From: an uncultured virus (IMG/VR IMGVR_UViG_3300042349_000834)
Taxonomy: Duplodnaviria > Heunggongvirae > Uroviricota > Caudoviricetes
IMG/VR virus record: IMGVR_UViG_3300042349_000834
Span: 57,267 to 77,266 of that record
Strand: one strand, 5' to 3'
Length of the DNA stretch: 20,000 nt
Of the stretch, positions 1 through 14,878 are shown piece by piece. The notes under the pieces are model-generated. The model did no database searches, was not told the DNA's origin, and was given only the letters and a program-made list of their open reading frames with translations. The position numbers and the translations under genes are program-made. The number at the start of each line of letters is the position of its first letter. Position 1 is the stretch's first letter.

Positions 1-254
1 GCTACCACATGATGTTTGTAGTTGTTGAATTCAATAAATCTATTTACATAATCCCATATTTTTTTATTAGAGGTATGAAAGATATGTGCGCCATATTTAT
101 GGACATCTATATTATTTTGTTTATAGGTATAGCAGTTCCCTCCTATGTGATCTCGTTTGTCTATCACCAGACAAGAGTATCCTGCGTCACTTAGTTCTCT
201 AGCACATACTGAACCATATATGCCAGCTCCAATAATTAAAAAATCAAATTTCAT
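1..254 (-). CDS. glf: UDP-galactopyranose mutase, N-terminal part (runs off the window edge)
   Basis: Manual translation from ATG at 254: MKFDFLIIGAGIYGSVCARELSDAGYSCLVIDKRDHIGGNCYTYKQNNIDVHKYGAHIFHTSNKKIWDYVNRFIEFNNYKHHVV. It has the FAD-binding GxGxxG motif plus the Glf signatures R-x-HIGGN-x-Y and HKYGAHIFHT. The ATG overlaps the upstream TGA stop (ATGA, 251-254). Not in the supplied ORF track. Confidence 0.95.
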   Translation of the reverse strand, partial: MKFDFLIIGAGIYGSVCARELSDAGYSCLVIDKRDHIGGNCYTYKQNNIDVHKYGAHIFHTSNKKIWDYVNRFIEFNNYKHHVV

Positions 255-907
255 AAGGGTATAAATTTATAGAATTCTGGATGTCTTATATCATTCTCGT
301 CGTAAACGTCTCCGACAAATTCAGTACCTTGTCTCATAGTAGGAAAAGGTTTTTTGTCAAAAAACTCATCATGAACAACTTTATCGTTTTGTATGAGTGG
401 ATATAGAGTGTTGCCTAAAAATTCATAATCAGTTCCATATTTATCTTTGCTGACATAATTTTTAAGAAGTTCTTCTATGTTATATGTATCGTTTTTTTTG
501 TATCCCCACATTCCTCCCAAAATGGGATATCCGTGATGAGGATGATCCCTCATTATGTGAATGGTTTTATTTTGCTTTAGCCAATAGTCAACAGCATATT
601 TTTCTCTCATACTAAGACGACTATCAGTATCTCTGAATACACAAACATCAAATTCGGGATCAAAACAAGTTTGAAATCTCCAGAACAGATTGGACCACGA
701 ATCTGATCCATTCATTGTTTTTACAATCACATGATCAAATTGTTCTAGTTCTATTTTTGTTTGTTCTGGAACAGATGAGTCGCTTATGAAGAATACACAT
801 TTCCATTCTGGATATATTATTGAAGCTAGTTTTGCATTTTTAATAGCTCCAACATTATATTTTGGATTATTTCCCCATAAGCTAAAAGCAATACATTTAT
901 TAGTCAT
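251..907 (-). CDS. Putative glycosyltransferase-like protein (GT-A-like, DxD)
   Basis: Motifs FSLWG..Y..GA, FWRF, RDTDSR (DxD), HIMRDHPHH..PILGGMWG. This pattern recurs in glycan gene clusters of large viruses and bacteria. Translationally coupled to glf. Confidence 0.6.
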   Translation of the reverse strand: MTNKCIAFSLWGNNPKYNVGAIKNAKLASIIYPEWKCVFFISDSSVPEQTKIELEQFDHVIVKTMNGSDSWSNLFWRFQTCFDPEFDVCVFRDTDSRLSMREKYAVDYWLKQNKTIHIMRDHPHHGYPILGGMWGYKKNDTYNIEELLKNYVSKDKYGTDYEFLGNTLYPLIQNDKVVHDEFFDKKPFPTMRQGTEFVGDVYDENDIRHPEFYKFIPL

Positions 908-1481
908 TTAACTTATTATTTGTTTTAGGAGGATAGTTATACACAATAACATCAAACTGTCCCCAAATATCATCAATTAAATCAGAAACGAACTGCCAAT
1001 TACCACCAGCTAGTCCGCTACCAAATTTAGGACAATGTATTTCTATCTTTTCGCTTTTATTAGAGAATCCCGTATTAGATTTAATATATTGAGATAAAGT
1101 ATTCATTGACTTAACTAATGCCAAATAGTTTAAAGGTCTGATATTGTTAGTCCCTTTAACTCCATTTTGAGCTATCATATTAACAAAAAATAGTTTATGC
1201 TTAAATTTATTGTCTTCATAGACTTTTAGTATTTGGCTATATCCAAAATTGTTACGCAAAAAGTGCTTGCCTAGCAAGTGATAGTCTTGTTTAACTGAAG
1301 GATATTTTTCAGCTAACTGAGCGGCAAATCCAGCACCGAATAGATCTATATTATTACACACATGAGGAACAAATACCGTAGATCCATTATTGCCGGAACT
1401 TACTCTTTCTCTGATAGATTCAAAAAGATTTTGATTAGAAAATCTGTAGTTGGGTAATAGTTTATTTATTTTTATTGACAT
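900..1481 (-). CDS. Macrodomain protein (ADP-ribose binding/hydrolase, Poa1p/TARG1/DarG-like)
   Basis: HVCNN...FGAGFAAQL, VNMIAQ and IHCPKFGSGLAGGNW are macrodomain motifs. Start moved to ATG 1481, preceded by SD-like AAGGTGA. Confidence 0.85.
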   Translation of the reverse strand: MSIKINKLLPNYRFSNQNLFESIRERVSSGNNGSTVFVPHVCNNIDLFGAGFAAQLAEKYPSVKQDYHLLGKHFLRNNFGYSQILKVYEDNKFKHKLFFVNMIAQNGVKGTNNIRPLNYLALVKSMNTLSQYIKSNTGFSNKSEKIEIHCPKFGSGLAGGNWQFVSDLIDDIWGQFDVIVYNYPPKTNNKLND

Positions 1482-1485
1482 TTGA

Positions 1486-1737
1486 TCACCTTTGAATTTT
1501 TGGCCATTTGCCAATAGGGCATTCTTGATCAGCCCATGCTAGTTTATTTAAGAATTTCTTCTTCTTACTCAAATAACATCCACATACATTGCACTGTTCT
1601 TTGTTTGCATTGAATTCTTCACATGTTTCACATACGTGGTATCTGTCTAGTATTTCTTTTTGTGTGGACTTTGGGAATCCTCCATAAATATGAAACCATA
1701 AGGACTTAATGAAGATCTGTAGTCTGATTAGGAACAT
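1486..1737 (-). CDS. Small Cys-rich protein (DUF6171-like)
   Basis: R..VCETC...QCNVCGC...K.....ECPIGKW pattern. Likely start at ATG 1737 after purine-rich AAGGAAGAAGG. Confidence 0.6.
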   Translation of the reverse strand: MFLIRLQIFIKSLWFHIYGGFPKSTQKEILDRYHVCETCEEFNANKEQCNVCGCYLSKKKKFLNKLAWADQECPIGKWPKIQR

Positions 1738-1957
1738 CCTTCTTCCTTTCTTTAATGGCAACAATATTTGAATCTTTATCTACTGTAAAAAGATCAATTT
1801 GTTCTATTATAAGATCAGGCAACATCCATTTTGTTGTTCCATCAATAAGAGAAACACATAAACGAGAGCCATTTTTCTTGTAGTCTGTGGTGACTACATA
1901 TTGGCATCCATTGTGCTGATAGCAATCACCAATTAATAATTCTTCTAAGTATTTCAT
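1706..1957 (-). CDS. Hypothetical protein
   Basis: 83-aa ORF packed into the minus-strand gene run; no recognised motif. Confidence 0.6.
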   Translation of the reverse strand: MKYLEELLIGDCYQHNGCQYVVTTDYKKNGSRLCVSLIDGTTKWMLPDLIIEQIDLFTVDKDSNIVAIKERKKDVPNQTTDLH

Positions 1958-1962
1958 ATTAA

Positions 1963-2157
1963 TTAATGATTGTAGTATCTATCCCAGTCTTCCCATTCTT
2001 CGTCTTGGAGATCTTCTTTGTGTTTTTTAACCTGTTTATTTATATCTTTAGGAGAAAAATCACCATCATCGTAACGTTGTTTGTTACGCTTCTTTTTGAT
2101 TTTATCTCTTCTATCGAGTTTTCGGTCTTTTTCTGGAAATTCGTTGTTTGGTTTCAT
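1963..2157 (-). CDS. Small highly charged hypothetical protein
   Basis: Lys/Arg-rich N-terminal half and acidic aromatic tail (DEEWEDWDRYYNH). First gene after the leftward promoter. ATG 2157 preferred over TTG 2175. Confidence 0.6.
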   Translation of the reverse strand: MKPNNEFPEKDRKLDRRDKIKKKRNKQRYDDGDFSPKDINKQVKKHKEDLQDEEWEDWDRYYNH

Positions 2158-2188
2158 TGAAATTATAGTCGCCAAAAGTATCTTTTGT

Positions 2189-2216
2189 ATAGTAGCTCAA
2201 AAAAGTTTGATGTCAA
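2189..2216 (-). promoter_or_regulatory. Sigma70-like promoter, leftward (TTGACA-16 bp-TACTAT)
   Basis: Minus strand TTGACA at 2216-2211 and TACTAT at 2194-2189, in the divergent intergenic gap. Confidence 0.65.
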
Positions 2217-2240
2217 TAGACTCTTTAGGATTTTTTTATC

Positions 2241-2269
2241 TTGACCCAACGAGAGAAGAGAATTACTAT
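2241..2269 (+). promoter_or_regulatory. Sigma70-like promoter, rightward (TTGACC-17 bp-TACTAT)
   Basis: TTGACC at 2241-2246 and TACTAT at 2264-2269, upstream of the glycosylation operon. A further TATAAT lies at 2286-2291. Confidence 0.6.
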
Positions 2270-2323
2270 TATGCAGGTCGGTGGATATAATATACTCTTT
2301 AGATACAATACCCTCTATCATCC

Positions 2324-3985
2324 ATGCTCAAATCTACCATCGTTACAGGAATATGGGATTTGGGCAGAGGTTCGCTAGGCGACGGATGGAGCAGGTCTTT
2401 TGATCGCTACAGAAACAACTTCTCTGTTCTGCTAAATAATATTAAAGATATTCCTACTATAGTTTTTATAGATAAAGAACACGAAGATATAGTATGGAAA
2501 TACAGAAGCAGAGACAACACAGCTGTTTATCATCATTCTGCTAAGGATTTTGATAATAATTTTTTCCCTTTTCGCAATCAAGTGGAAAAAATAAGGACAA
2601 ATGAAGACTGGTTATCTCAAGCTGGCTGGTTAAGAGATAGCACTCAAGCGAAATTGCCATTATACAACCCCATGGTAATGAGCAAGATGTTCCTATTGCA
2701 CAATGCAAAAGTATTTAATCCATTTAGTAGTGAGTACATGTATTGGCTTGATGGTGGAATATCCAATACTGTTCACCCAGGATACTTTAGCCACGACAAA
2801 GTAATAGAAAAAATACAAGATATCACTAAAAAATTCCTCTTTGTGTGTTTTCCTTATGAAACAGAATCAGAAATCCATGGATTCGACATAAGAAAAATGA
2901 GAGAATACGCTAAATCAGAAGAGGTTAATAGGGTTGCTAGAGGAGGATTTTTTGGTGGACACATTGATTATATATCTGAAGCTAATAATCTGTATTATAG
3001 TCTATTGAATGATTCTCTCAATAACGGTCTCATGGGTACTGAAGAAAGCATATTTACCCTAATGACATATTTGCAACCAGAAATGTATCAACATGAAACA
3101 ATTAATCATGATGGTTTATTGTCAACATTTTTTGAAAAAGTAAAAAATAATCAAACAGTTATAGAAGAAATAGCAAAAAACAATCCTAGAAAAAAGCATT
3201 CAAATAACGAAACAGTATTATACATTAATGCTTTTAATTCTCCAGAACAATTACAAATGGTCTTGGATAGTTTTGAACTACATGATAACTCATTTATTAC
3301 TCAAACAAAAAAGATTCTAATAAACAATAGCACAAAAGAAGATCTCTTCAGTAAGTATGATGCCATTTGCGAAAAATACGGATTTTCAGAGCAGATTAAA
3401 AAAGGAAATTTAGGAGTTTGTCGAGCTAGACAATTTGCTGCTGAACATTTCGCAGACCTTGGTTCTAAATACATGATCTTTTTTGAGGACGATATGTTGT
3501 TAGATTATTCTATATCTAATTGTAATTTTGGTTTTAAAAAATCGACACCTAATTTATTAAGTAGTCTTATTCGTATAATGGACAATGAAGAGTATGATTT
3601 TTTGAAATTTAGCTTTAGCGAATTTTATGGACATAACGGAGAACAGTGGAGTTGGCATAATGTTCCTTCAGAATTACGAGTAAAATATTTTGGAGACGCA
3701 AAGAAAAAACCCCCAACGAAGTTCTCCTGCATAAAATCTTATAATGGCATACCTTATGCAGAAGGTGAGATTTACTATTCAAATTGGCCCCATATAATAG
3801 ATCAGGAAGGCAACCAAAAACTATTCTTAGATACTACATGGTCAAATCCTTTTGAACAAACGTGGATGAGTCACATATATACTCTAACAATTAACAATAA
3901 AGTTAAACCAGCGATATTATTAGCTAGTCCAATAACACATAATAGGGTTCATTTTTATGAAGCGAACGAACGCAAAGAAAATTAA
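2324..3985 (+). CDS. Two-domain glycosyltransferase: N-terminal HtrL/YibB(WlaTC)-like domain plus C-terminal GT-A (GT2-like) domain
   Basis: N-terminal TIVTGIWDLGR, SKMFLL..A..FNPF.SEYMYWLDGG, GGFFGG and GTEESI match HtrL-like proteins. C-terminal half has GNLGVCRARQ and YMIFFEDDM (DD motif). Confidence 0.75.
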   Translation: MLKSTIVTGIWDLGRGSLGDGWSRSFDRYRNNFSVLLNNIKDIPTIVFIDKEHEDIVWKYRSRDNTAVYHHSAKDFDNNFFPFRNQVEKIRTNEDWLSQAGWLRDSTQAKLPLYNPMVMSKMFLLHNAKVFNPFSSEYMYWLDGGISNTVHPGYFSHDKVIEKIQDITKKFLFVCFPYETESEIHGFDIRKMREYAKSEEVNRVARGGFFGGHIDYISEANNLYYSLLNDSLNNGLMGTEESIFTLMTYLQPEMYQHETINHDGLLSTFFEKVKNNQTVIEEIAKNNPRKKHSNNETVLYINAFNSPEQLQMVLDSFELHDNSFITQTKKILINNSTKEDLFSKYDAICEKYGFSEQIKKGNLGVCRARQFAAEHFADLGSKYMIFFEDDMLLDYSISNCNFGFKKSTPNLLSSLIRIMDNEEYDFLKFSFSEFYGHNGEQWSWHNVPSELRVKYFGDAKKKPPTKFSCIKSYNGIPYAEGEIYYSNWPHIIDQEGNQKLFLDTTWSNPFEQTWMSHIYTLTINNKVKPAILLASPITHNRVHFYEANERKEN

Positions 3986-5273
3986 AGCCAAGACTCAAAC
4001 AGCCACAAAGAGTAATAAAGTAGAGACTATTTTTATTCAGATAGCTTCGTATCGAGATCCTCAACTCCTCCCAACCTTGAGAGATTTGTTTAGTAAAGCA
4101 AAAAATCCAAATAATATCACTGTTGGAATATGCTGGCAACATTCTCCAGATGATACATGGGATGTCCTAGCAGAGTTTGAAAACGATCCAAGAATAAAAG
4201 CTATAAACATAGACTATAAAGATAGTCAAGGTGTTTGCTGGGCTAGAAATTTAGTTCAATCTCTATATAATGGAGAAACATATACTCTACAACTAGATAG
4301 TCACCACAGATTCGTTCAAGACTGGGATGAAATCTTAATAGATATGCTAAAAGGTTTACAAAAAGACGGCTACAATAAACCGTTAATAACAGCATATATA
4401 CCCAGCTTCGATCCAGACAATGATCCCGCATCCAGAGTTCAAGAGCCTTGGAAAATGAATTTTGATAGATTCATTCCTGAAGGAGCAGTTTTCTTTTTAC
4501 CTGCCTCTTTTGATTCTTGGGACGATAAAACCAAACCTCTTCCAGGCAGATTTTATAGTGCTCATTTTGCTTTTAGCGTAGGAGCATTTTGTAAGGAGGT
4601 TCCTCACGATCCTCAATATTATTTTCATGGTGAAGAAATTAGTATTGCGGCTAGAGCATATACTCATGGGTATGATATATTCCATCCTCATAAGGTTGTT
4701 TGTTGGCATGAATATACCAGAAAGGGAAGAACCAAGCAGTGGGATGATGATAAAAAATGGGGAGACAGGAATAATATCTGTCATCTACGAAACAGAAAAT
4801 TGTTTGAAATGGATGGAGAAAAAAGAGATATAGATTTTGGCCAATATGGTTTTGGCACAGTAAGATCTTTGAGAGATTACGAAAAATATAGTGGATTATC
4901 ATTTGGTAAAAGAGCTATACAAAAAAGAGTACAGGATCATCAAGCACCACCAGATCCAGAAACATCCTATCTACCCGATGAGGATTTTGATAAAAGACTA
5001 TTAAGGATATTCAAGCATTGCATAGATATTCAATATGGTCAAGTACCAGAAAATGATTATGATTTTTGGGCTGTTGCTTTTAAAGATAAAGAAGGTCGAG
5101 ATATATACAGGCAGGACGCAGATAAAGACGAAATACTACGTATTAAAAATGATCCAGATGGATATTGCAAGGTGTGGAGAGAGTTTCAAACAGAAGTTAC
5201 TCCAACAAGCTGGTTGATTTGGCCTCATAGCTTATCAAAAGGATGGGCAGAACCGATTGTAGGGTATCTGTAA
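3957..5273 (+). CDS. GT60/Gnt1-like polypeptide or hydroxyproline alpha-N-acetylglucosaminyltransferase, with a C-terminal extension
   Basis: TIFIQIASYRD, GVCWAR, YTLQLDSHHRF..DWD (DSH metal motif) and YFHGEEI..AARAYTHGYDIFHP are hallmark motifs of Dictyostelium Gnt1-type GT60 enzymes. Confidence 0.85.
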   Translation: MKRTNAKKIKAKTQTATKSNKVETIFIQIASYRDPQLLPTLRDLFSKAKNPNNITVGICWQHSPDDTWDVLAEFENDPRIKAINIDYKDSQGVCWARNLVQSLYNGETYTLQLDSHHRFVQDWDEILIDMLKGLQKDGYNKPLITAYIPSFDPDNDPASRVQEPWKMNFDRFIPEGAVFFLPASFDSWDDKTKPLPGRFYSAHFAFSVGAFCKEVPHDPQYYFHGEEISIAARAYTHGYDIFHPHKVVCWHEYTRKGRTKQWDDDKKWGDRNNICHLRNRKLFEMDGEKRDIDFGQYGFGTVRSLRDYEKYSGLSFGKRAIQKRVQDHQAPPDPETSYLPDEDFDKRLLRIFKHCIDIQYGQVPENDYDFWAVAFKDKEGRDIYRQDADKDEILRIKNDPDGYCKVWREFQTEVTPTSWLIWPHSLSKGWAEPIVGYL

Positions 5274-5281
5274 AACGTCTT

Positions 5282-5893
5282 ATGCCAATATTTTCAAATA
5301 TTAGTGCTATTGGAGATTCTCATGTTGGTGCTTTTTCACCATACTGTAGATTATGTACTCTTGGTCCAGTTACCATGTATTCATTGACAACAGATAAGCT
5401 TAATGAATATATTGTTTATTTGCTTGAACGAAAAGAAATAGATATTAATGGCTGGTGGATTTTTTGTACTGGCGAAATAGATATAAGATGCTTATTACAC
5501 AAACAAATAAATGAGTACGGTAGAAAAGAGGACGAGACTATAGAAACATTGGTAGAGAATTATATATCCAATCTATATAAGCTGAATCACACCAAGTTAG
5601 CCATATCAACCACAGTACCACCTGCAAAAACAGAAGGTTTTGAAGTTCAACAAAAACATACCATTAATTCTGACTACCCTTTCAAGGGATCAGATTCAGA
5701 AAGAAACAGATGGTCTCAAAAATTAAATCACTATTTAATAAATAAGTGCATAGAAAAAAACATTACTTATATAGATATATACTCTCTATTCAAGAACAAC
5801 GAAGGATTTTTAGATCATCAATATATAGACGCAGATATGATACATGTTTCAAAAAATGATAAAATTGTCACATTACTTAATAATTTATACTAG
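5282..5893 (+). CDS. SGNH/GDSL-fold protein (putative O-acetyl esterase or transferase)
   Basis: Block I IGDSH, GEID.R, and C-terminal DxxH (DMIH). Start placed at ATG 5282, just after the upstream stop at 5273. Confidence 0.7.
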   Translation: MPIFSNISAIGDSHVGAFSPYCRLCTLGPVTMYSLTTDKLNEYIVYLLERKEIDINGWWIFCTGEIDIRCLLHKQINEYGRKEDETIETLVENYISNLYKLNHTKLAISTTVPPAKTEGFEVQQKHTINSDYPFKGSDSERNRWSQKLNHYLINKCIEKNITYIDIYSLFKNNEGFLDHQYIDADMIHVSKNDKIVTLLNNLY

Positions 5894-5901
5894 GAGAAAC
5901 T

Positions 5902-6642
5902 ATGAATTTGCTTTCCGCCCTGACGACATATAATGTTAATTCGAATAAAATGAGAATAGGTAATGAGCACGATGGTGGATATATTATCAATGATCTCATA
6001 GTTAAAAATACCAAAAGATTAATTTCTGTAGGAATAGGCGGAGAAGACAATTTTGAATTACAGTGGGCAGAAAAATTCCCAACAACATTCATAGAAGCAT
6101 ACGACGGAACGTATCCGTGTAACAATTTATGTAATAAATTTCCTGATAGAATTAACAAAAACATTTTTTACGTTCATAATGACGTTGGTTTTGGAGAAAA
6201 ACAAATTCCTCTCAATACAATCGTAGATAGTAAAGAAGGAGTTTTATTAAAAGTTGATATAGAAGGTGGTGAATATACTGCATTTGATAATTTATATCCA
6301 GACAGGAATCTAACAGGACTCATCTTAGAAGTCCACGATTTACATATACCTGAGAATTGTCAAAAAATAGCAAAAATAATCACTGAAAATTTCAAAAACT
6401 TGCTTCTTTTCCATGTTCACGGAAATTCGTGGGGAGGTATGTTTGATTTGAACTTGACACCCAATGTCAATGATGGTATACTAATCAAGAGGTTTCCTCA
6501 TGTGCTAGAACTGACATTCATATCAAAGCATATTGTAGATAATTACTCTCTTGAAAAGCGTAAATTCCCTGTGGATGGTTTGGATAATACTAACAGACAT
6601 GATTTTCCTGACATAGATCTTTATTGGATAAATGCTATATGA
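5902..6642 (+). CDS. FkbM-like / Methyltransf_22-type SAM-dependent methyltransferase
   Basis: RIG..HDGGY, SVGIGGEDNFE, LLKVDIEGGEY, LEVH, HVHGN and LELTF motifs. SD AGGAG upstream. Confidence 0.8.
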   Translation: MNLLSALTTYNVNSNKMRIGNEHDGGYIINDLIVKNTKRLISVGIGGEDNFELQWAEKFPTTFIEAYDGTYPCNNLCNKFPDRINKNIFYVHNDVGFGEKQIPLNTIVDSKEGVLLKVDIEGGEYTAFDNLYPDRNLTGLILEVHDLHIPENCQKIAKIITENFKNLLLFHVHGNSWGGMFDLNLTPNVNDGILIKRFPHVLELTFISKHIVDNYSLEKRKFPVDGLDNTNRHDFPDIDLYWINAI

Positions 6643-7499
6643 TATACATCTCGCTATGTGCTATGCCAGATAGATTAGAGACTAAAGATAGTTCGTCCCA
6701 ATGTTTATCTTCTTTATTAGAACAAGAAACAACCCATGAATATAAAGTTCTTTTAAATATTCCTTTAAAGTTAAGGAACTACGAAAATACAACTATACCA
6801 CAATGGGTATTGGATTTAGAAGCAACATATAGCGGTAAGCTTATGATTCTTAGAGATGATACGGACTATGGACCAATATCTAATCTATTGTCTCCCATTA
6901 AGCTAATAAGTATGGATCCAAATGACATTATTATTATTTGTGATGATGATCATATGTATGATCCAAAAATGATCGAATACCATCTTAAAAAATTGCAACA
7001 ATATCCCGACCATCATGCTATTTGCTTTAGGGGTAATCAACCACTAGAACTAAGAACGTGGTATATAGATAATGTTAAATATGGTAAACTCTATAATTCC
7101 TGTGTTTTATTTCCAACAAGAAATGATATTTATTTAAAATTGCCTGATCATTGGCATAGCGTATCATATCGTAGAAAGTTTATTCAACAAGACATTTTTG
7201 ATCAAGATTTTTTAAATATATCTTGGAATAACGACATTTTAATGGGATGTTATGCATGGTCTCATGACTTTTATTTCTTATGCGCTAACTATGATCAAGA
7301 GAGTGATTTTAGACCCGTTAACTATGATGGTCGAGGAGCTAATTCTTTTCCTTTAATGAAGATGCTTCCATTTTCTGGAGACAGTGGGTGCAATAGATGG
7401 AGAGATAAAAATAAGAAACCGGGTGAAGATATATGGGATTTAGAAAAATTTCGACAACTATTTGATAAGGATAAAGGAATAATACAATTATGGAAATAA
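6639..7499 (+). CDS. GT-A fold glycosyltransferase-like protein (paralog 1)
   Basis: ISL..MPDRL, LNIP, DYGPISNL, IIICDDDHMY, NNDILMG. ATG 6639 overlaps the previous TGA (ATGA). Confidence 0.7.
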   Translation: MIYISLCAMPDRLETKDSSSQCLSSLLEQETTHEYKVLLNIPLKLRNYENTTIPQWVLDLEATYSGKLMILRDDTDYGPISNLLSPIKLISMDPNDIIIICDDDHMYDPKMIEYHLKKLQQYPDHHAICFRGNQPLELRTWYIDNVKYGKLYNSCVLFPTRNDIYLKLPDHWHSVSYRRKFIQQDIFDQDFLNISWNNDILMGCYAWSHDFYFLCANYDQESDFRPVNYDGRGANSFPLMKMLPFSGDSGCNRWRDKNKKPGEDIWDLEKFRQLFDKDKGIIQLWK

Positions 7500-8260
7500 T
7501 CATATCTCTAACAACTGTACCTAATAGGTTATATGAGCATCACGGTCATTCAGCCACTAGGGCTGCTCTCACCACTCTATTAGAACAGTCATATCCTTCA
7601 TATTCTGTTCACTTAAATATTCCTTTAGAATATAGAGGAGAGCAAGTTTCTATACCAGATTGGCTTAATGACTACACAAATAAGTACAAACATCTAAAAG
7701 TTTTTTTAACACAAGACTATGGATCAATAACCAAGCTAATACCAACTCTAGAGAGAGTTGAAGATCCAGAAAGCATTATCATATTAGCAGATGATGATCT
7801 TTACTATATGGACGGATTAATTTCTGCACATATCAATGGAAGACAAAAATATCCAGACTACGCATTAGGTTTTGCTGGTATGGCAGCAATAGATGGCTCA
7901 TGTCACTTTTGTACAACAATACCAAAGGATACCAGAGTTAAGGTTTTAGAAGGATACAAAACAGTATCATACCTAAGAAAATTTTTTGACATTAATGAAC
8001 TCAAAAAAGATTTTGTTGGTAAGTCTTGGAGAGATGACGAAACATTATCGGCTTATATGGGGTATAAAAACATTAAAAAATTAGTATTATCATATGAAGG
8101 GGATACTGACTTTTCTCCAAGAGTAGAGTCTTTTCCAGTAACTGGTCATGTTCCAGCAGAAAGAGGTGGATGTAATTTATTCAGGGACTGTTCTGATTCC
8201 CAAAACAAGTCAGAACAAAATATACAGGAATTTTTTAAACTTGGTTACTTAGAAAGATAA
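7490..8260 (+). CDS. GT-A fold glycosyltransferase-like protein (paralog 2)
   Basis: IISLTTVPNRL, LNIP, DYGSITKL, IIILADDDLYY, DDETLS. Aligns by eye with the preceding gene. Confidence 0.7.
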   Translation: MEIIISLTTVPNRLYEHHGHSATRAALTTLLEQSYPSYSVHLNIPLEYRGEQVSIPDWLNDYTNKYKHLKVFLTQDYGSITKLIPTLERVEDPESIIILADDDLYYMDGLISAHINGRQKYPDYALGFAGMAAIDGSCHFCTTIPKDTRVKVLEGYKTVSYLRKFFDINELKKDFVGKSWRDDETLSAYMGYKNIKKLVLSYEGDTDFSPRVESFPVTGHVPAERGGCNLFRDCSDSQNKSEQNIQEFFKLGYLER

Positions 8261-8262
8261 TT

Positions 8263-8643
8263 ATGAAATACTTTTATTGTGTCATTTTGGTCATTCTTTT
8301 GTCTAGCAGCACTAAAGCTCAACAATGGTCTAATCCTGAAAATGCTAATCTTACAAGCACTATGACAAATATGATGGTTAATTTTGGTATAGCAGGAATG
8401 CAGTCATCCCAACCTTATGCAGCAAATAATACTAATCAATATCTAGATTATCAAAATGGATATTATCAAGAACTACAAAATAATTTAACTAGAACTGAAA
8501 TATATTTTCAAAAAAGACAAACTAATATGTACTACAGAGAACTTGAGTTTATTCAAAAACGAGAACTCAAAAATCTTAAAAAATATGATCAGTTGACCAT
8601 ACCAGAGCTTAATAGAATTTTTGGGAAAGATAGCAGATATTAA
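8263..8643 (+). CDS. Putative exported hypothetical protein
   Basis: Signal-peptide-like start MKYFYCVILVILLSSSTKA; Q/N/Y-rich body. Its stop shares the TTAA at 8640-8643 with the convergent subtilisin gene. Confidence 0.6.
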   Translation: MKYFYCVILVILLSSSTKAQQWSNPENANLTSTMTNMMVNFGIAGMQSSQPYAANNTNQYLDYQNGYYQELQNNLTRTEIYFQKRQTNMYYRELEFIQKRELKNLKKYDQLTIPELNRIFGKDSRY

Positions 8644-9575
8644 AATATTGGATTTACAATCCCATAACCTTGATATTTTTTTATTCCTTTATATCTAGGA
8701 TTTTCTAAAGAAATAGCATGTAGTTTAAATACTTCTATATAGTCTTCAAATGTTTTAAGCTGATATTTTTTATGCTTATTATTATAGCTTAATAGTAATG
8801 AAGCACAACCGACGACAAATGGATTGCTCATGCTTGTTCCGCTCATACTAGCATATCTATTTCCTGGAACACATCCAATAATATTGTGACCAGGAGCCAA
8901 AAAGTCTAAATCATCTCCACTACAGGTAAATGAAGTTCTATTCATATTTTCGTCTATTGCTCCTATAGATATAGTATTTTTATATCTAGCTGGATACATT
9001 ATTTCGGCATTTTCTCCGCTATTTCCAGCAGCGCAAAAAACAACACATCCCTTACTATTAGCATAAGTGATAGCATCCTCTATAACCTTCGCCGGTGCTG
9101 GTGAACCAAGACTCATAGTTATAAAATCTACATCTCCGTGGTTTGCAGCCCAGTAAATTCCGTCTGCAACTGTGTTCATTGATCCTGAACCATCGTCTCC
9201 AAGTGATTTAACCGGAATAATTTTAGTCATAGGAGCAACTCCAACCATGCCAAAACCATTATCTGACGCAGCTATAGTAGAAGAAACATGCGTTCCGTGA
9301 CCAGCACCATCTATTGGTTCTTTATTTTGATTAATAAAATTTTTCCCAGGTAATAAATTATCTACTAAGTCTTTATGGGTTAGGTCACATCCTGTGTCTA
9401 TAACAGCTACGACTACTCCTTCTCCTTTAGACTCTTTCCATAGATTAGGCACATTAAATTTTGTAAGTTCCCATCCCTTAAATTGTGGATCATTCACAGA
9501 TAGTCCATACACATCCTCTCTAACATATGGTAACAGTGAAATATTATTTTTCTTTTTTAAAAAACCTCTAGCCAT
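8640..9575 (-). CDS. Subtilisin-family (S8) serine protease
   Basis: Catalytic triad motifs VAVIDTG, HGTHV and SGTSMS, plus oxyanion AAGN. No signal peptide. SD AAGGAG. Confidence 0.95.
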   Translation of the reverse strand: MARGFLKKKNNISLLPYVREDVYGLSVNDPQFKGWELTKFNVPNLWKESKGEGVVVAVIDTGCDLTHKDLVDNLLPGKNFINQNKEPIDGAGHGTHVSSTIAASDNGFGMVGVAPMTKIIPVKSLGDDGSGSMNTVADGIYWAANHGDVDFITMSLGSPAPAKVIEDAITYANSKGCVVFCAAGNSGENAEIMYPARYKNTISIGAIDENMNRTSFTCSGDDLDFLAPGHNIIGCVPGNRYASMSGTSMSNPFVVGCASLLLSYNNKHKKYQLKTFEDYIEVFKLHAISLENPRYKGIKKYQGYGIVNPIF

Positions 9576-9577
9576 GA

Positions 9578-10327
9578 TTACTCCTTAGCTTGTTTTAGTG
9601 TTTTTTTTATCCAATCGTGGAATAAACTTACCCTAGTATGACAACTTTCGTCTGTATATGTTGAGTTTGGCTTCCCGTCATAGCCTATAACAGACGAGTG
9701 GATTCCGGCAAGTTTGTTGCCTATGAACAAACCCCCGCCACTATCCCCACTACCTATAAGATATTCTAGTTCTGTCATTTTCTCGTTTCTTCTCGATGGC
9801 GAGCAGATTAAAATCTTTCTTTCTGTTCTATCTATAAAATTAGATCCAGCTCTTTTTTTTCCATCTGCTCTTTCAATACCAGTATTAAATGTTCCAGTAA
9901 ATCCCAAACCGGCCATAGAGCATACTTTACCTACCTCATCTGAATCAATATATAATTCAGGATAATGGTCTAATTTAATTTCTTTTTCTATATAACCTAA
10001 AGCAATATCATTATAACCAAATACTTCTGTTTTATAATCTTCGTGAATAATAACTTTATCAATCTTGTATTGTTCTTCACCCACTGTAACTGACCAACTA
10101 TGGCAATTTTCTACCACATGAGCAGCTGTAATTATCCAATGTGGATCTATTATAACAGCAGATCCACAAGACAGTCCTTTGCCGTCAAAACAACATAGTT
10201 TAACAACACTATGAAATTTAGACCCATATTCTACATACCTTGAGTCTGGAGTATTAGGATCTATGGTTCCAGAATAAGCTGCAGAACCTATCAAAAATAC
10301 TACTAAAGCTAGTAAAAATTGACGCAT
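9578..10327 (-). CDS. Trypsin-like (S1) serine protease with signal peptide
   Basis: TAAHV, DIAL and GDSGG triad motifs. Hydrophobic N-terminus MRQFLLALVVFLIGSAAYS. Confidence 0.93.
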   Translation of the reverse strand: MRQFLLALVVFLIGSAAYSGTIDPNTPDSRYVEYGSKFHSVVKLCCFDGKGLSCGSAVIIDPHWIITAAHVVENCHSWSVTVGEEQYKIDKVIIHEDYKTEVFGYNDIALGYIEKEIKLDHYPELYIDSDEVGKVCSMAGLGFTGTFNTGIERADGKKRAGSNFIDRTERKILICSPSRRNEKMTELEYLIGSGDSGGGLFIGNKLAGIHSSVIGYDGKPNSTYTDESCHTRVSLFHDWIKKTLKQAKE

Positions 10328-10640
10328 GGTTTTGCACTTTGGGAGAATAGGGACGATTCTTAACCTTATTTAAATACACCGAGCAATCATTAATCACGTC
10401 AACATTCCAACTACTATAATCCATTAAATGGCCAAAAACAAAATGACAATCAGAACACAAAGTAATAAGATTAGTTAAATCCAACTCTCTGCTTGGATTG
10501 ACATGAAAAGGCTCTATATGATGTACCTGAATTTTTTTGCATGAACCGCAAGCCATGCAGCAGGGTTGTGATAGTAGGTGTTTTTTTCTTATTAATGACC
10601 ATTTAGGAGATCTGTCGGATAAAATATTCCACATTTTCAC
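10254..10640 (-). CDS. Small HNH endonuclease
   Basis: CMACG...VHHI...NLITLCSDCH zinc-bound HNH pattern. The 3' end overlaps the protease gene by 74 bp. Start is GTG 10640 or ATG 10634. Confidence 0.85.
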   Translation of the reverse strand: MKMWNILSDRSPKWSLIRKKHLLSQPCCMACGSCKKIQVHHIEPFHVNPSRELDLTNLITLCSDCHFVFGHLMDYSSWNVDVINDCSVYLNKVKNRPYSPKVQNHASIFTSFSSIFDRFCSLFWNHRS

Positions 10641-10644
10641 TATA

Positions 10645-11217
10645 TTATCCGCTTATTTCCATATAAATACAGTAATTCCCAACATTATCAAACCATGTTC
10701 CACTATCCCATATTCCACAATATACATATCCAGAGGATGGGGCAACTATATTTCCTCCCAATCCTATATAAAATGATCCAGTAGTAGTAAACGGTATTGA
10801 AGAAGCATCTGTTGTTGATAAAACGCCAAATACTGCATTATAATTGTTTATAAAAACATTAGGAGTACTATAAATGCCACGAGCATCACTAATACAAGCA
10901 CCAACAGCACAAGAAACACACCCTCTAACAGAGAAACTTATAGTCTGACCCGCTGTCACAAACTGCTGACCAATTCTTTTAAGTGTTGCTCCATCGGAAT
11001 AAACTAATGATGTTTCAATGGGTAGGCACGTAATACTTTCGGCACTTATACACATTCTGGTTGGCGTGGGTGTGATTGTTGGTGTGGGTGTAGGGGTATT
11101 AGTTTTTGTTATTGTGGGTGTTAGACTTACTGTTGGAGTTATTGTTGGTGCTGGTGTGCTGCTACTCAGGGGTTTTTGAGTAGCTACTGGACAGCAATTT
11201 ATATTAATAATTGTCAT
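10645..11217 (-). CDS. Thr/Pro-rich stalk plus C-terminal lectin-like beta-sandwich (LecA/PA-IL-like)
   Basis: N-terminal INCCPV.TQKPLSS, about 35 aa of TP repeats, then GQTISFSVRG...FYIG....VAPSSGYVY.GIWD....DNVGNY, which resembles PA-IL-like domains. Confidence 0.6.
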   Translation of the reverse strand: MTIININCCPVATQKPLSSSTPAPTITPTVSLTPTITKTNTPTPTPTITPTPTRMCISAESITCLPIETSLVYSDGATLKRIGQQFVTAGQTISFSVRGCVSCAVGACISDARGIYSTPNVFINNYNAVFGVLSTTDASSIPFTTTGSFYIGLGGNIVAPSSGYVYCGIWDSGTWFDNVGNYCIYMEISG

Positions 11218-11804
11218 ATTTTATAACCACTTACTCTTGAGATCATAGGTCCAAAACATCCACCCGGAGATATTGATTCAAATTTTAGTAATGTACTATT
11301 AGAATTAGCAGTAAAAGTCTCAGAAATAGTATTCCAGCCAAAAGTTTCTGCTGAAACTTGAAACCCATAACTTGGACACGTATAAGTATATGTTTTATTA
11401 AGTATTATATTAGTACCAGTTAGCGTTAATTTCATAACTTTATCAGCAACATTATTATCAAAACGCACCCCACAATTTCCGCTTAGATCAAAATAAATTA
11501 CATAATTTTGTCCAGGTATTGTTGTAATAGTTTGACTGATATATCCAATCCCACAAGCGTTTAAGTCTACAAAATATCTATCAAAACCATAATAATTATA
11601 ATCTACAGAACTAAAAGTCCAATTACTAAGGGAATTTTCTAATGATCCGTTTATCACTATGTTAACAGGTTCTGCGCTTGGCGTAGGCGTTATTGTTTGT
11701 GTAGGAGTAGGGGTATTGGTTTTTGTTATCGTGGGAGTAGGAGTAACACTACTTAATGGTTTTTGAGTAGACACTGGACAGCAATTAATACTTATGATGC
11801 TCAT
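11214..11804 (-). CDS. Thr/Pro-rich stalk plus DUF642/galactose-binding-like carbohydrate-binding domain
   Basis: Same N-terminal motif and TP repeats, then NIVINGSLE...VDLN...[13 protein letters not shown]...FDLSGN...W...TFTA....T.L.FES...FGP, typical of DUF642-like domains. Confidence 0.7.
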
Positions 11805-13873
11805 GGGATATAGTTAATTTCTCTTTGGGCTATAAAATAGTAGGTGGGTTCTGGTGTAGGTTGAGGCGTAGAACTTGGTGGTGGTGTAGAGCTTGGGGTT
11901 GCTGCCGGTGTGCTGCTAGATGTTGGTTCTGGAGTTTGAGTCGGAGTAATACTTGGAGTTGTTGTTATTGTCGGCGTTACGGTAGCAGTTGGTGTTGGGG
12001 TTGGAGTTACGCAGCATGATTCAAAGCAATACGTTCCAGGAAATGATACCCAAGAACTTGGAATATTAGATGGCGAAACAGATGTAGAATCAAAATATGC
12101 ATCTTGACAATTTGTAAAATGCATAGCCCTAATTCTAAAAGTTAGAGGCTGATCCGCACTTGTGCAAGTACCGTCTCCACTTTTATTCTCAAAACTATTT
12201 AGATAATACTGATAAGATGAAGCGTTAGGATTAAATATGCAGATATTATCTACTATATCATCAACCGATCCGCTTTGACCATTTGCGTCCAGTGCTTGTA
12301 TCTGATACCCCTCTATACAGCCTTGACTACCTGGTTCAGTATTTCTGTTCCATGTTAAATATATAATTACTTGGTTAGGGCTTTCAGTACCATCCTTTAT
12401 ACATGAACAGGCAGCACTTTGAATACTAGGAGTTAATAACTGACAATTATTTGTTGGCGTTGGGGTCGGACTTTGGCTAGGCGGTGGAGTACAACAATTA
12501 CAATTACTTGTATTTCCCTCAAATGCCCATACTGGAGGAACATTACATTGACAGGCAGTAGATATTCCAGTTATATTTAATCCTCCAACACAAGAAATAT
12601 TAGCACTTGCTGTCCATTTATTAGCACATGAACTAGAACCAGTATATGCTACACTAGGATCACAAGTAACTGACATAAAGTATGTATCGCCACAAGCCAA
12701 TGTGCCGCTACTAGTCCAATAATTTGGCATGACTTTAGTAAATAACAAATCTAGACTTATAGTTCTGGTTATATTGTTACAATTTAATACAAATGTAGTC
12801 AAACCATTCCAGTCGCAGCAAGTAGCTCTACTTGGAGATGGCGTTAATGTCTGAGATGCTGTTAATGAAGGCGTTGGAGTTAGCGTTCTGGTGACTGTTT
12901 GGGTTGGTGTTCTTGTTGGAGTAGGAGTGCAACAACTGCAATTATCAAAATTGCCAACAAAACTCCAAATAGGAGGAGCGTTACATTGACAGGCTTCTTT
13001 TATTCCAGTAATTATTAGACCAGTAACACAGGATATGGTTAATGAAGAAGTCCATTTATTTATACATGAACCTGATCCTGTGTATCTAGCATTTGGATCA
13101 CATGTTATCGTAGAACTAAAAGTATCTCCACATGATAAACTTCCACTAGCTTGCCATGTATTTGCTGCTGTTTTTGTATAGGCTACTGGAATGACTAAAT
13201 TGCCACAAGAAGCATCAAACTGTAAGAATGTATTACCGTCCCACTCACAACATGTAACAGTAGATGGGCTTGGAGTATTTGTCGGAGTAGCAGTAATTGT
13301 GATAGAAGGAGTAATAGAGGGTGTTACTGTAGCAGTAGCAGATCTTGTGATAGTAACTGTTGGGGTTTGGCTTACTGTAATACTTGGTGTTTGCGTTGGT
13401 GTTTGCGTAGGTGTTGGTGTCTGTGTATTGGTCTGAGTAATACTAGGAGTTAGTGTAGGGGTCGATGTAGCTGTTCGACTATTAGTGGGGGTTGCAGTTG
13501 GTGTTCTTGTATTAGTAGGGGTGTTTGTTCTAGTTGTTGTTATGCTTGGAGTTACGGTAGGGGTTACTGTTCTTGTTAGTGTTCTAGTTGGTGTTCTTGT
13601 TGGGGTAACTGTTCTAGTTACAGTAATGCTTGGAGTTATTGTAGGGGTAAGTGTTGGTGTCGGTGTTGGCGTTTTTTTAGGGGTTCTAGTTGGTGTTGGA
13701 GTTTTAGTAGGTGTCTTAGTAGGCGTTTTACTAAGGGAATTTCTATCTATAAAAGGACACCCATCATCCGACCCTATCCTTGGAGGTTTTGGAGTTTCTG
13801 TTGGTGTTCTGGTTGGTGTTGGAGATGGCGGAAGTATTTTCCGCTCATTTTGTCCGTTCATTCTGTTTGTCAT
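11801..13873 (-). CDS. 690-aa mucin-like protein: Thr/Pro/Ser tracts, two 12-Cys repeats and an FN3-like domain (putative virion fibre or decoration protein)
   Basis: About 190 aa of N-terminal TP/TR repeats; duplicated Cys-rich module (aa 207-315 and 351-461); LTW...GYQI...TFRIRA FN3-like segment; C-terminal TP tract; no signal peptide. Confidence 0.8.
12491..13255 (-). repeat. Intragenic duplication of a ~110-aa Cys-rich module (copies at 12929-13255 and 12491-12823)
   Basis: Both copies share TCCxWxG...W..SG.L.CGDT.....TCDP...YTGS.SC.NKWT....ISCV.GL.ITGI..ACQCN.PP.W.F.GN..NC.CC. Confidence 0.9.
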
Positions 13874-13876
13874 TTA

Positions 13877-14878
13877 TTACAATACTTTCGCAGCTATTAA
13901 ACATCCTTTTGACACTGAATGTAACGGATCGGCGGCATGCTTAACTTCTTTAATAGACAAAGGAAAATTATTTTCTGATAGTTTTTTCTTAAAATGTTCA
14001 ATATAACCACCAGCTTGTGATGTTCCACCAGCAATGACTATTGTTAGTGGGTCTTTAAACTTTGGTAAAGCTTTATGATCTGTTAGTGCTGCTGTTAATT
14101 GTTTAGTAGTATAATCTATTAAACGATCATAATATGACGATACAGCTGCTAATATAGGATTATCATTATGCTGACCAACATTAAAATTTCCACCCTCTTT
14201 CTCAGCCTGTACGACACTATCCGGTTCCCCTGTGGCTACGGCGCTCATTCTATCTACCCAATCCCCAGATTTAGTTGTGGAAAATACAACAGTGGGTTCA
14301 CCATTTAGCATTACACAAACATTAGTCATACCAGCACCACAGCTAATAGCTATACCAGTATAATCATTATCCGCTAACTCAGCATAGCATAAAGCTTCAG
14401 CTTCATTAATTGATCTAGCGTTATATCCACAGCTATCTAAAATAGTTTTGACTACATCTTCATGATATCCAACATCAAAATCTTCATCTTCTTGGTCTAC
14501 TGGTTGAGCAGGAACACAAAAAACGATCTTTTCAAGGGGCTCCGAAGATTGCCCGACTACTTCCTTTAATATAAAAGCTAAGACTCTTTTCGCATCTTTC
14601 TCTTTTGCAGAAACAACTCCTTTGTACATTGGTCTTTTAGCGGTGTCGTTTCTCTCAATAGCTTTTTCAATAGCATCTTGTCCGAGGATAATAAAAGAAC
14701 CGTCTGTATCTTTAATAAAGACTTTTCCAGCCAATCCCTTTTCTATCATCTTTGTTGCTACTGGAGTAGATGGCTTGATGATATAAAAGGCATCTCTAAA
14801 GTCTTTGTATTGTACTTTATCTCCTTTGTCCTCAGATAAAACAATATAGCTTGTTCCTACGTCAAGACCCCTAGCCAT
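13877..14878 (-). CDS. Actin-fold ATPase (MreB/MamK-like superfamily)
   Basis: Phosphate-1 GLDVGTS, connect-1 INEAEA, phosphate-2 ISCGAGMTNV and adenosine IVIAGGTS motifs. SD GAGGTGA. Confidence 0.85.
   Translation of the reverse strand: MARGLDVGTSYIVLSEDKGDKVQYKDFRDAFYIIKPSTPVATKMIEKGLAGKVFIKDTDGSFIILGQDAIEKAIERNDTAKRPMYKGVVSAKEKDAKRVLAFILKEVVGQSSEPLEKIVFCVPAQPVDQEDEDFDVGYHEDVVKTILDSCGYNARSINEAEALCYAELADNDYTGIAISCGAGMTNVCVMLNGEPTVVFSTTKSGDWVDRMSAVATGEPDSVVQAEKEGGNFNVGQHNDNPILAAVSSYYDRLIDYTTKQLTAALTDHKALPKFKDPLTIVIAGGTSQAGGYIEHFKKKLSENNFPLSIKEVKHAADPLHSVSKGCLIAAKVL

Follow-up and report, generated by a model that had tools for sequence, protein, structure and literature searches.

The stretch of DNA analyzed here (the window) comprises 20,000 nucleotides, positions 57,267 to 77,266 of the IMG/VR virus record IMGVR_UViG_3300042349_000834, and forms the final 20 kb of this 77,266-bp contig (33% GC). 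An earlier note made from the letters alone, here called the original prediction, had proposed that the window encodes a phage system for mucin-type protein O-glycosylation, in which glycosyltransferases (GTs) including a GT60-type enzyme modify threonine/proline-rich (TP) proteins encoded close by. All open reading frames (ORFs) that it named were found where it had placed them, and the following features were identified.

1..254, minus strand: 5' part of glf (UDP-galactopyranose mutase), running off the window edge; not tied to GT60
251..907, minus strand: GT-A-like viral protein to the left of the cassette; its ESM neighbours are uncharacterised viral GT-A proteins
2324..3985, plus strand: HtrL/YibB-like GT plus GT2-like GT, 553 amino acids (PF09612, E 2e-14)
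3957..5273, plus strand: GT60-type (PF11397) GT-A enzyme, 438 amino acids (Pfam E 5e-77)
5243..5893, plus strand: SGNH-like protein, accessory (PF00657, E 0.005, below cut-off; GDSH and DxxH motifs)
5902..6642, plus strand: FkbM-like methyltransferase, accessory (PF05050, E 2e-4, just below cut-off)
6624..7499, plus strand: GT2-like glycosyltransferase, accessory (PF00535, E 4e-5)
7490..8260, plus strand: GT-A paralogue of 6624-7499, accessory (30% identity, E 5e-33; no Pfam match)
8640..10640, minus strand: subtilase, trypsin-like protease and HNH genes (Pfam), backbone between both cassettes and outside the system
10645..11217, minus strand: TP protein, 190 amino acids, candidate acceptor (INCC motif, TPT stalk, 7 TPT)
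11214..11804, minus strand: TP protein, 196 amino acids, candidate acceptor (INCC motif, TPT stalk, DUF642/choice-of-anchor C)
11801..13873, minus strand: TP protein, 690 amino acids, candidate acceptor (45% T+P+S, 33 TPT)

The last GT gene (end 8260) and the block of three TPT-tract proteins (start 10645) are separated by 2,385 bp, in agreement with the predicted distance of about 2.4 kb. As had been described, glf and another GT-like gene (251-907) are located to the left; glf, confirmed by PF03275 (E 1e-73) in a complete twin genome, is encoded on the opposite strand, 2 kb from the GT block. The GT block can be termed an operon because its genes are tightly packed on the same strand; a scan for promoters and terminators in it gave results at chance level (63 vs 56 ± 8). 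From the operon as originally described, the four further GT domains were recovered, while the matches for the SGNH protein and the FkbM-like methyltransferase are weak and below the Pfam cut-offs. The twin genome, G003 (an IMG/VR record, 243,821 bp long, that has direct terminal repeats), carries an identical GT60 gene and also encodes the window's three TP proteins. With its terminase large subunit, its portal protein and a capsid protein resembling phage G gp27 (E 4e-7), it is a large tailed phage.

Profile searches with the protein encoded at 3957-5273 returned PF11397 (GlcNAc) with 260 bits (E 5e-77), far above the curated cut-off of 21, and the glycosyltransferase family PHROG 24687 (E 5e-174); we take PF11397 to be CAZy family GT60. 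An AlphaFold 2 (AF2) model was generated from an alignment of 45 sequences and reached a predicted local distance difference test (pLDDT) score of 90, with a predicted fold in which a GT-A domain is joined by an extra, all-beta domain at the C-terminus (about residues 349-437). The best Foldseek matches of this model in the PDB were all GT27 polypeptide N-acetylgalactosaminyltransferases (ppGalNAc-Ts), with identities to GT27 structures of 11-15%. VIA-align, run against 48,161 chains, placed mouse GalNAc-T1 first (Z 20.8, 281 aligned residues, root mean square deviation (rmsd) 3.7); Toxoplasma GalNAc-T3 scored Z 20.2 (268 aligned residues, rmsd 3.4) and the next family only 16.2. The residues D114-S-H116, F223-H-G-E-E227 and H251 are invariant in the 45 aligned sequences, and the DxH motif and the C-terminal histidine are also kept in 11 diverse phage and bacterial homologues. 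FHGEE (223-227) is presumably the counterpart of the GT27 WGGE loop. DxH is described as marking both GT27 and GT60, families that carry out polypeptide Ser/Thr O-glycosylation (PMC7185993), and the Trypanosoma cruzi GT60 enzyme TcOGNT1 is described as making alpha-linked N-acetylglucosamine on threonine (GlcNAc-alpha-O-Thr) of mucins (PMC9472816).

No transmembrane (TM) segment or membrane anchor was detected in the GT60 protein, whose best 19-residue hydropathy is 0.66. Judged by hydropathy only, TM segments or signal-like N-termini are absent from all seven GT-block and GT-like enzymes and from the three TP proteins, as predicted; ORFs 8263 and 9578 served as control and do score as TM- or signal-bearing. 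Pfam found no ricin-type lectin domain in the GT60 protein, the all-beta C-domain being scanned only within the full-length protein. The GT60/Gnt1-like identity originally proposed is thus confirmed by the profile score, the GT27-like model and the DxH motif, and the model leads us to predict that 3957-5273 is a soluble, initiating polypeptide O-N-acetylhexosamine (O-HexNAc) transferase. The family is very large: more than 7,400 unannotated viral clusters were matched by the GT60 search.

Among the 106 ORFs of the 77-kb contig, TPT tracts were found only in the three TP proteins, where Thr and Pro account for 63-77% of 30-residue windows, a mucin-like low-complexity composition. The C-terminal beta domain of 10645-11217 has PA-IL look-alikes by ESM (score 0.84, TM-score 0.54-0.55), and a PA-IL/LecA-like head is possible from these comparisons; an internalin K assignment (NCBIfam) for the same protein was far below cut-off and was rejected as a low-complexity artefact. 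The protein at 11214-11804 matches PF04862 (E 4e-8) and TIGR04362 (E 2e-14, below cut-off), and that at 11801-13873 contains long TPT tracts between Cys-rich repeats and a short conserved C-terminal tag. A single-sequence AF2 model of this 690-amino-acid protein gave a pLDDT of 34 and no usable fold; a region of it is fused to a formylglycine-generating enzyme (FGE)-sulfatase-fold domain in the relative P0124. Two plus-strand ORFs overlapping this tract (13191-13436 and 13485-14006) were rejected as genes, being Val/Gly-rich antisense shadows.

A Pfam domain could be named in 10 of 45 TP proteins. The N-terminal Cys-Cys (CC) motif is present in 13/82 TP proteins and in 24/2,530 other proteins (near-copies counted). 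Behind it come the stalk and then a head that varies (DUF642, possible PA-IL-like or fn3; LamG in a distant clade), an anchor-stalk-head layout that suggests surface display. In G003, five TP proteins are encoded, the three of the window and two after the tail genes, the latter bearing FGE-sulfatase-fold and DUF285 domains. TP proteins with the FGE fold are found in relatives at the slot occupied by the window's three as well as in the tail module, and together with the FGE fusion of the 690-amino-acid relative this connects the two TP sites. The claim that TP proteins are structural proteins of the phage is supported by gene position for the two in the G003 tail module; for the window's three, which have no structural annotation and are encoded outside the morphogenesis module, we infer a virion location.

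To compare the distribution of enzyme and candidate acceptors, loci were scored for a TP-rich ORF within 10 kb and whole records for the motif TPTxTPTxT. A TP-rich ORF was present at 42/80 GT60 loci vs 0/80 random viral loci, which had been picked by an arbitrary 14-mer. In a distant clade (59-63% identity) it was present at 25/26 loci, 12 of them with the ORF within about 110 bp of GT60. For whole records, 43 GT60 records were used (from 45 of the 80 loci, with contigs over 50 kb and two near-copies of the window left out, plus three cultured phages); 39 of these contain the motif, including 10/10 of those at least 90% complete. In the reverse direction, PF11397 was detected in 12 of 34 TP-selected records (from 39 of 134 loci, contigs over 50 kb). 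Control records from 50 of 121 random loci had GT60 in 0/50 and the TP motif in 1/50 (0/17 and 1/17 over 50 kb); as these controls are smaller, unrelated phages, shared ancestry was tested separately within the clade of the window.

Relatives were gathered by their major capsid protein (MCP), actin-like or trypsin genes, the trypsin-anchored search yielding 8 loci, and the 29 records of at least 80 kb were scored. With the strict motif, 9 records had both GT60 and TP, 15 neither, 4 GT60 only and 1 TP only (Fisher p 0.001, a value that ignores relatedness and overstates the independence of related records). Three GT60-only records (G136, G141 and G144) carry a divergent GT60 together with other Thr/Pro tracts missed by the motif; the fourth, G035, is likely cut just after the capsid gene and without its tail module, and the TP-only record G060 is a fragment that stops before the GT60 region. 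The divergent enzymes (G136 L560/L616, G141 L561, G144 L562/L573) have 37-39% identity, FRGEE for FHGEE and no HtrL partner, and the repeats of these records are poly-Thr/TTET, TPTYT and TPPT; enzyme type may be matched to repeat type. Eleven clade records either have terminal repeats or reach 190 kb; 5 of them had both and 6 neither. An actin-gene tree with 25 rows requires 5 changes of the GT60-positive state. Well-supported branches force 3 of these; G011 (both), for instance, is the sister of G124 and G125 (neither). The GT60-negative genomes G124-G126 have macrodomain, subtilase, trypsin, HNH and actin genes in order, the stretch 8640-10640 thus being kept, but have neither the GT block nor the three TP genes. 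The check for co-occurrence across related phages therefore revealed joint presence and absence, not independent distribution.

Homologues of the GT60 protein were found in four of 50,697 GenBank phage records (XacN1, Xoo-sp13, CM1 and RAS14; 45-49% identity), with no mycobacteriophage among them. XacN1, Xoo-sp13 and RAS14 also encode the HtrL-GT and have 39, 29 and 10 copies of the TP motif, respectively; five GT60-less jumbo phages, found via the XacN1 polymerase and distant (30-36% identity), have none. The XacN1 TP gene ORF325 is located after the baseplate wedge genes and before the GT cluster. Gene position is thus the clue to virion acceptors for this ORF and for the two tail-module TP proteins of G003, not for the window's three. 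XacN1 virions are reported to contain at least two Schiff-positive glycoproteins, and phage GTs were suggested as their makers, with ORF328 and the GT60 homologue ORF334 as candidates (PMC5852040).

In GTDB genomes the enzyme was found at 36 loci, accompanied at about 24 by the HtrL-GT; several of these contigs resemble binned phage. A small TPT gene adjoins GT60 at about 11/36 bacterial loci (8/36 under a stricter rule); such loci occur in Bacteroidota, among them the isolate Jiulongibacter sediminis, and in Gemmatimonadaceae. In the Bacteroidota loci L582, L588, L591, L600 (Jiulongibacter sediminis, with a second PF11397 gene) and L608 the TPT protein has a twin-Arg-like N-terminus, and in Saprospiraceae it carries a type IX secretion system (T9SS) sorting domain. 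Metagenome-assembled genomes of Gemmatimonadaceae (L587:8510-9235, L589:3839-4471, L592, L593 and L611) encode a protein with a PqqD-like domain, resembling the recognition element (RRE) of ribosomally synthesized and post-translationally modified peptides (RiPPs), directly upstream of GT60. With a leader-like Arg-Arg segment and a tail of TPT repeats, this protein looks, by its sequence, like a RiPP-type glycopeptide precursor.

The genes that accompany GT60 were compared across the same 80 loci. The HtrL/GT2 fusion (2324-3985), whose N-terminal half is covered by PF09612 and whose C-terminal half is GT2-like by ESM feature neighbours and a weak PHROG match, adjoins GT60 at 75/80 loci, and of 38 records scored, the 13 with PF09612 are the very 13 that have window-type GT60. 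Homologues of the other block genes were found at few loci (SGNH 5, methyltransferase 7, the GT2 at 6624 13, the GT at 7490 14). The gene-family distributions therefore identify GT60 and the HtrL/GT2 fusion as the core of the system and the remaining genes as a variable decoration set, which is plausibly linked to the GT60 glycan; the SGNH protein could possibly transfer or remove O-acyl groups. The glf gene occurs in 3/10 window-type GT60 records and in 5/32 records overall, one of them GT60-negative, and was rejected as a core component. Homologues of 251-907 are present at 29/80 GT60 loci and absent from G124-G126; this gene may or may not belong to the glycosylation system. Of the glycan extension, methylation, acylation and galactofuranose supply that had been proposed, extension by the HtrL/GT2 fusion is retained, whereas the SGNH, methyltransferase, GT2 and glf genes are variable and their roles plausible for this strain only. 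A full-length glmS, a feeder of UDP-GlcNAc synthesis, is present in G003 (G003:C1:223430-225244); glmS was found in 3/10 records of the window-type GT60 clade and in 0/22 other records searched, a distribution too sparse to count it as a system gene. The HtrL GT of Jiulongibacter is fused with an FkbM domain, and in XacN1-type phages a carbamoyltransferase (XacN1 ORF333, L215:16412-18709) follows GT60, which suggests carbamoylated glycans there.

Taken together, we consider it probable that the GT60 enzyme primes TPT stalks of virion appendages with O-HexNAc in the cytoplasm, followed by HtrL/GT2 extension and strain-specific decoration. The soluble enzyme would act in the host cytoplasm and link an initial N-acetylhexosamine, probably alpha-GlcNAc donated by UDP-GlcNAc, to threonine residues in the phage's own stalks. 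The HtrL/GT2 fusion would extend this primer, likely adding the next sugars, and the strain-variable GTs, methyltransferase and SGNH protein would decorate the glycan further. The acceptors, probably virion-surface appendages as judged from their genes, would consist of an anchor (the N-terminal CC motif or a tail-module domain), a stiff glycosylated stalk and a variable binding head of lectin-like, fn3, LamG or FGE-fold type. Once glycosylated, the stalks would be extended and would resist proteases, and the glycans may shield the particle. The original prediction of GT60 priming of Thr/Pro tracts is thereby strongly supported by fold, motifs and joint presence and absence in the clade, in cultured jumbo phages and in bacteria.

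Several observations weigh against this interpretation, in addition to the nature of the random controls and the relatedness of the clade records given above. PF11397 was lacking in 22/34 TP-selected records and in 5/7 of those at least 90% complete, so TPT tracts do not always need GT60, and the GT60-negative genomes G124 and G125 each encode one poly-Thr protein of another type (G124:C1:51513-53168 and G125:C1:83410-84399, both in the head/tail region). In many GT60-positive relatives the window's slot is free of TP genes, which are located at other sites such as the tail module; this complicates the simple picture, and the proposed proximity of enzymes and substrates fails as a rule in the clade. 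The three TP proteins of the window have no structural-protein match in Pfam, PHROG or NCBIfam and are encoded about 100 kb from the tail-module TP genes. Sequence-only PDB searches with protein and alignment queries found no solved relative of the enzyme. In XacN1, a second GT (GT9) is encoded, the glycoprotein bands are not tied to named proteins in the text of the report, and no tail fibres were visible by electron microscopy (PMC5852040). Glycan, donor, linkage and acceptor are predictions from genes and models.

Whether the TPT proteins, though glycosylated by GT60, might stay outside the virion, as intracellular proteins, decoys or lectins after lysis, or on the surface of the infected cell, was considered and is unlikely in our view. 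The genes of the window's TP proteins are indeed flanked by actin and protease genes and are not part of the structural module, the proteins have no structural matches, and bacterial cassettes serve TPT proteins with twin-Arg-like leaders and T9SS tails or with PqqD domains. However, the TP proteins have no signal or TM segments, sister TP proteins are encoded in tail and baseplate modules, the FGE fold occurs at the window's slot as well as in the tail module, and XacN1 virions are reported to bear glycoproteins (PMC5852040). A remodelling of host lipopolysaccharide (LPS) or capsule for superinfection exclusion, or the synthesis of a free glycan, with the TP genes hitch-hiking in variable islands, would follow the customary interpretation of phage GT clusters (PMC7824862, PMC7029224) and would fit the LPS-type families HtrL/YibB and GT2 and a second large glycosylation island in G003 that is partly shared with the GT60-negative G126. 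We regard it as decidedly unlikely, since the nearest fold is that of a polypeptide transferase, co-occurrence persists at TP-gene distances of 50-100 kb and is also seen in phages and bacteria that are unrelated, and Pfam and hydropathy revealed no membrane anchor, flippase or polymerase in the GT block.

The soluble cytoplasmic GT60 enzyme Gnt1 of Dictyostelium acts on hydroxyproline, and the tracts are Pro-rich; hydroxylation of the repeat prolines followed by GlcNAc transfer to hydroxyproline instead of threonine, as on Skp1, is nevertheless very improbable. The 2OG-Fe(II) oxygenase family PF13640, the sole oxygenase family searched, exceeded its cut-off in 0/5 GT60-positive complete or near-complete genomes, with one match below cut-off in G011, and Pfam found no oxygenase in the GT block. 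We give hardly any credence to DNA hypermodification, in which the GTs would glycosylate modified bases. The C-terminal half of 2324-3985 weakly resembles PHROG 842, a beta-glucosyl-HMC-alpha-glucosyltransferase (E 1e-4), but the tie to TPT proteins would be left unexplained, Pfam detected neither a base-hydroxylating nor a hydroxymethylase gene in the GT block, and assembly and sequencing of the genomes are normal.

Beyond cytoplasmic priming of virion stalks in this clade, GT60 and the HtrL/GT2 fusion could form a portable cytoplasmic mucin-type module of several unrelated jumbo-phage lineages and some bacteria, for which we see even chances. In the phages it would serve to coat the virion with a glycocalyx whose anchor-stalk-head appendages are interchangeable, each enzyme subfamily being matched to its type of repeat, and in bacteria it would act on exported mucin-like proteins and RiPP-like glycopeptides; the estimate covers these two parts jointly.

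Mucin-type O-glycosylation is taught as a process of the eukaryotic secretory pathway. The protist GT60 enzymes (T. cruzi TcOGNT1/2 and Dictyostelium Gnt1) share PF11397, DxH and a GT27-like fold with the phage enzyme, which differs from them in being soluble without a Golgi anchor and in its extra beta C-domain, its HtrL/GT2 partner and its predicted phage-protein acceptors. TcOGNT1 is described as priming threonines of mucin-like proteins, which can then carry galactose and galactofuranose (PMC9472816). Compared with the animal and apicomplexan GT27 ppGalNAc-Ts, the nearest solved fold with a catalytic and then a beta domain in both, the phage enzyme has 11-15% identity and no ricin lectin match and would act outside the secretory pathway. 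Mycobacteriophages (Che8 and others) likewise use phage GTs on their own virion proteins and gain a glycan shield (PMC11256854, PMC12619734, PMC10955285). Going by the published descriptions, the glycans there are attached to capsid and tail tube proteins at their C-termini, whereas dedicated mucin-like stalks are predicted here; the major capsid protein of G003 has no TPT tract. Glycosylated PT-repeat linkers are also described between domains of bacterial secreted cellulases, these being secreted and modified by chromosomal enzymes of other families (PMC3490864, PMC4370642, PMC6151902).

A further comparison is XacN1, in which ORF334 is a full-length homologue (48% identity) with an HtrL-GT partner and many TPT genes; the searched text of the XacN1 paper names neither GT60, acceptors nor TPT tracts (PMC5852040). 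GT60 domains are recorded in a giant virus (10.1101/2020.07.30.228163), and a 2026 huge-phage preprint has no passage on mucin or GlcNAc. No paper on a pairing of GT60 with mucin-like stalks in phages was found in a search whose coverage excluded subscription journals and bioRxiv supplements. Phage virion glycosylation is already known, and it is the GT60-mucin pairing for which no paper was found. If true, phage-encoded cytoplasmic mucin-type glycosylation would be a new layer of particle biology, with a bearing on stability, adhesion and how particles evade grazers or antibodies. It would assign a function to the very large unannotated viral GT family, open an alternative to the default view of phage GT islands as modifying host LPS, and make available polypeptide HexNAc-transferases that are soluble, compatible with E. 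coli and of use in producing synthetic mucins. As the module is present in cultured phages, the claim can be tested directly.

Further observations were made outside the two cassettes. A DarG assignment (NCBIfam) for 900-1514 was rejected, its score being far under cut-off. In G000, a second very large sugar-metabolism island (G000:C1:13000-35000 and 50000-57500) is only partly shared with the GT60-negative G126; from their N-termini its genes are presumably NeuA/NeuB-like, GT and methyltransferase genes. G003 encodes three tandem tail-tube-like paralogues (G003:C1:7575-11138; tail-tube inferred from position), which G124-G126 match at a single place. In the window itself, the subtilase adjoins a signal-peptide-bearing trypsin-like protease (8640-10327, minus strand), both conserved in the clade, and to the right of the TP genes a Volactin-like actin homologue (13877-14878, minus strand; PF25216, E 6e-66), a phage cytoskeletal protein, is conserved with more than 80% identity across the clade.

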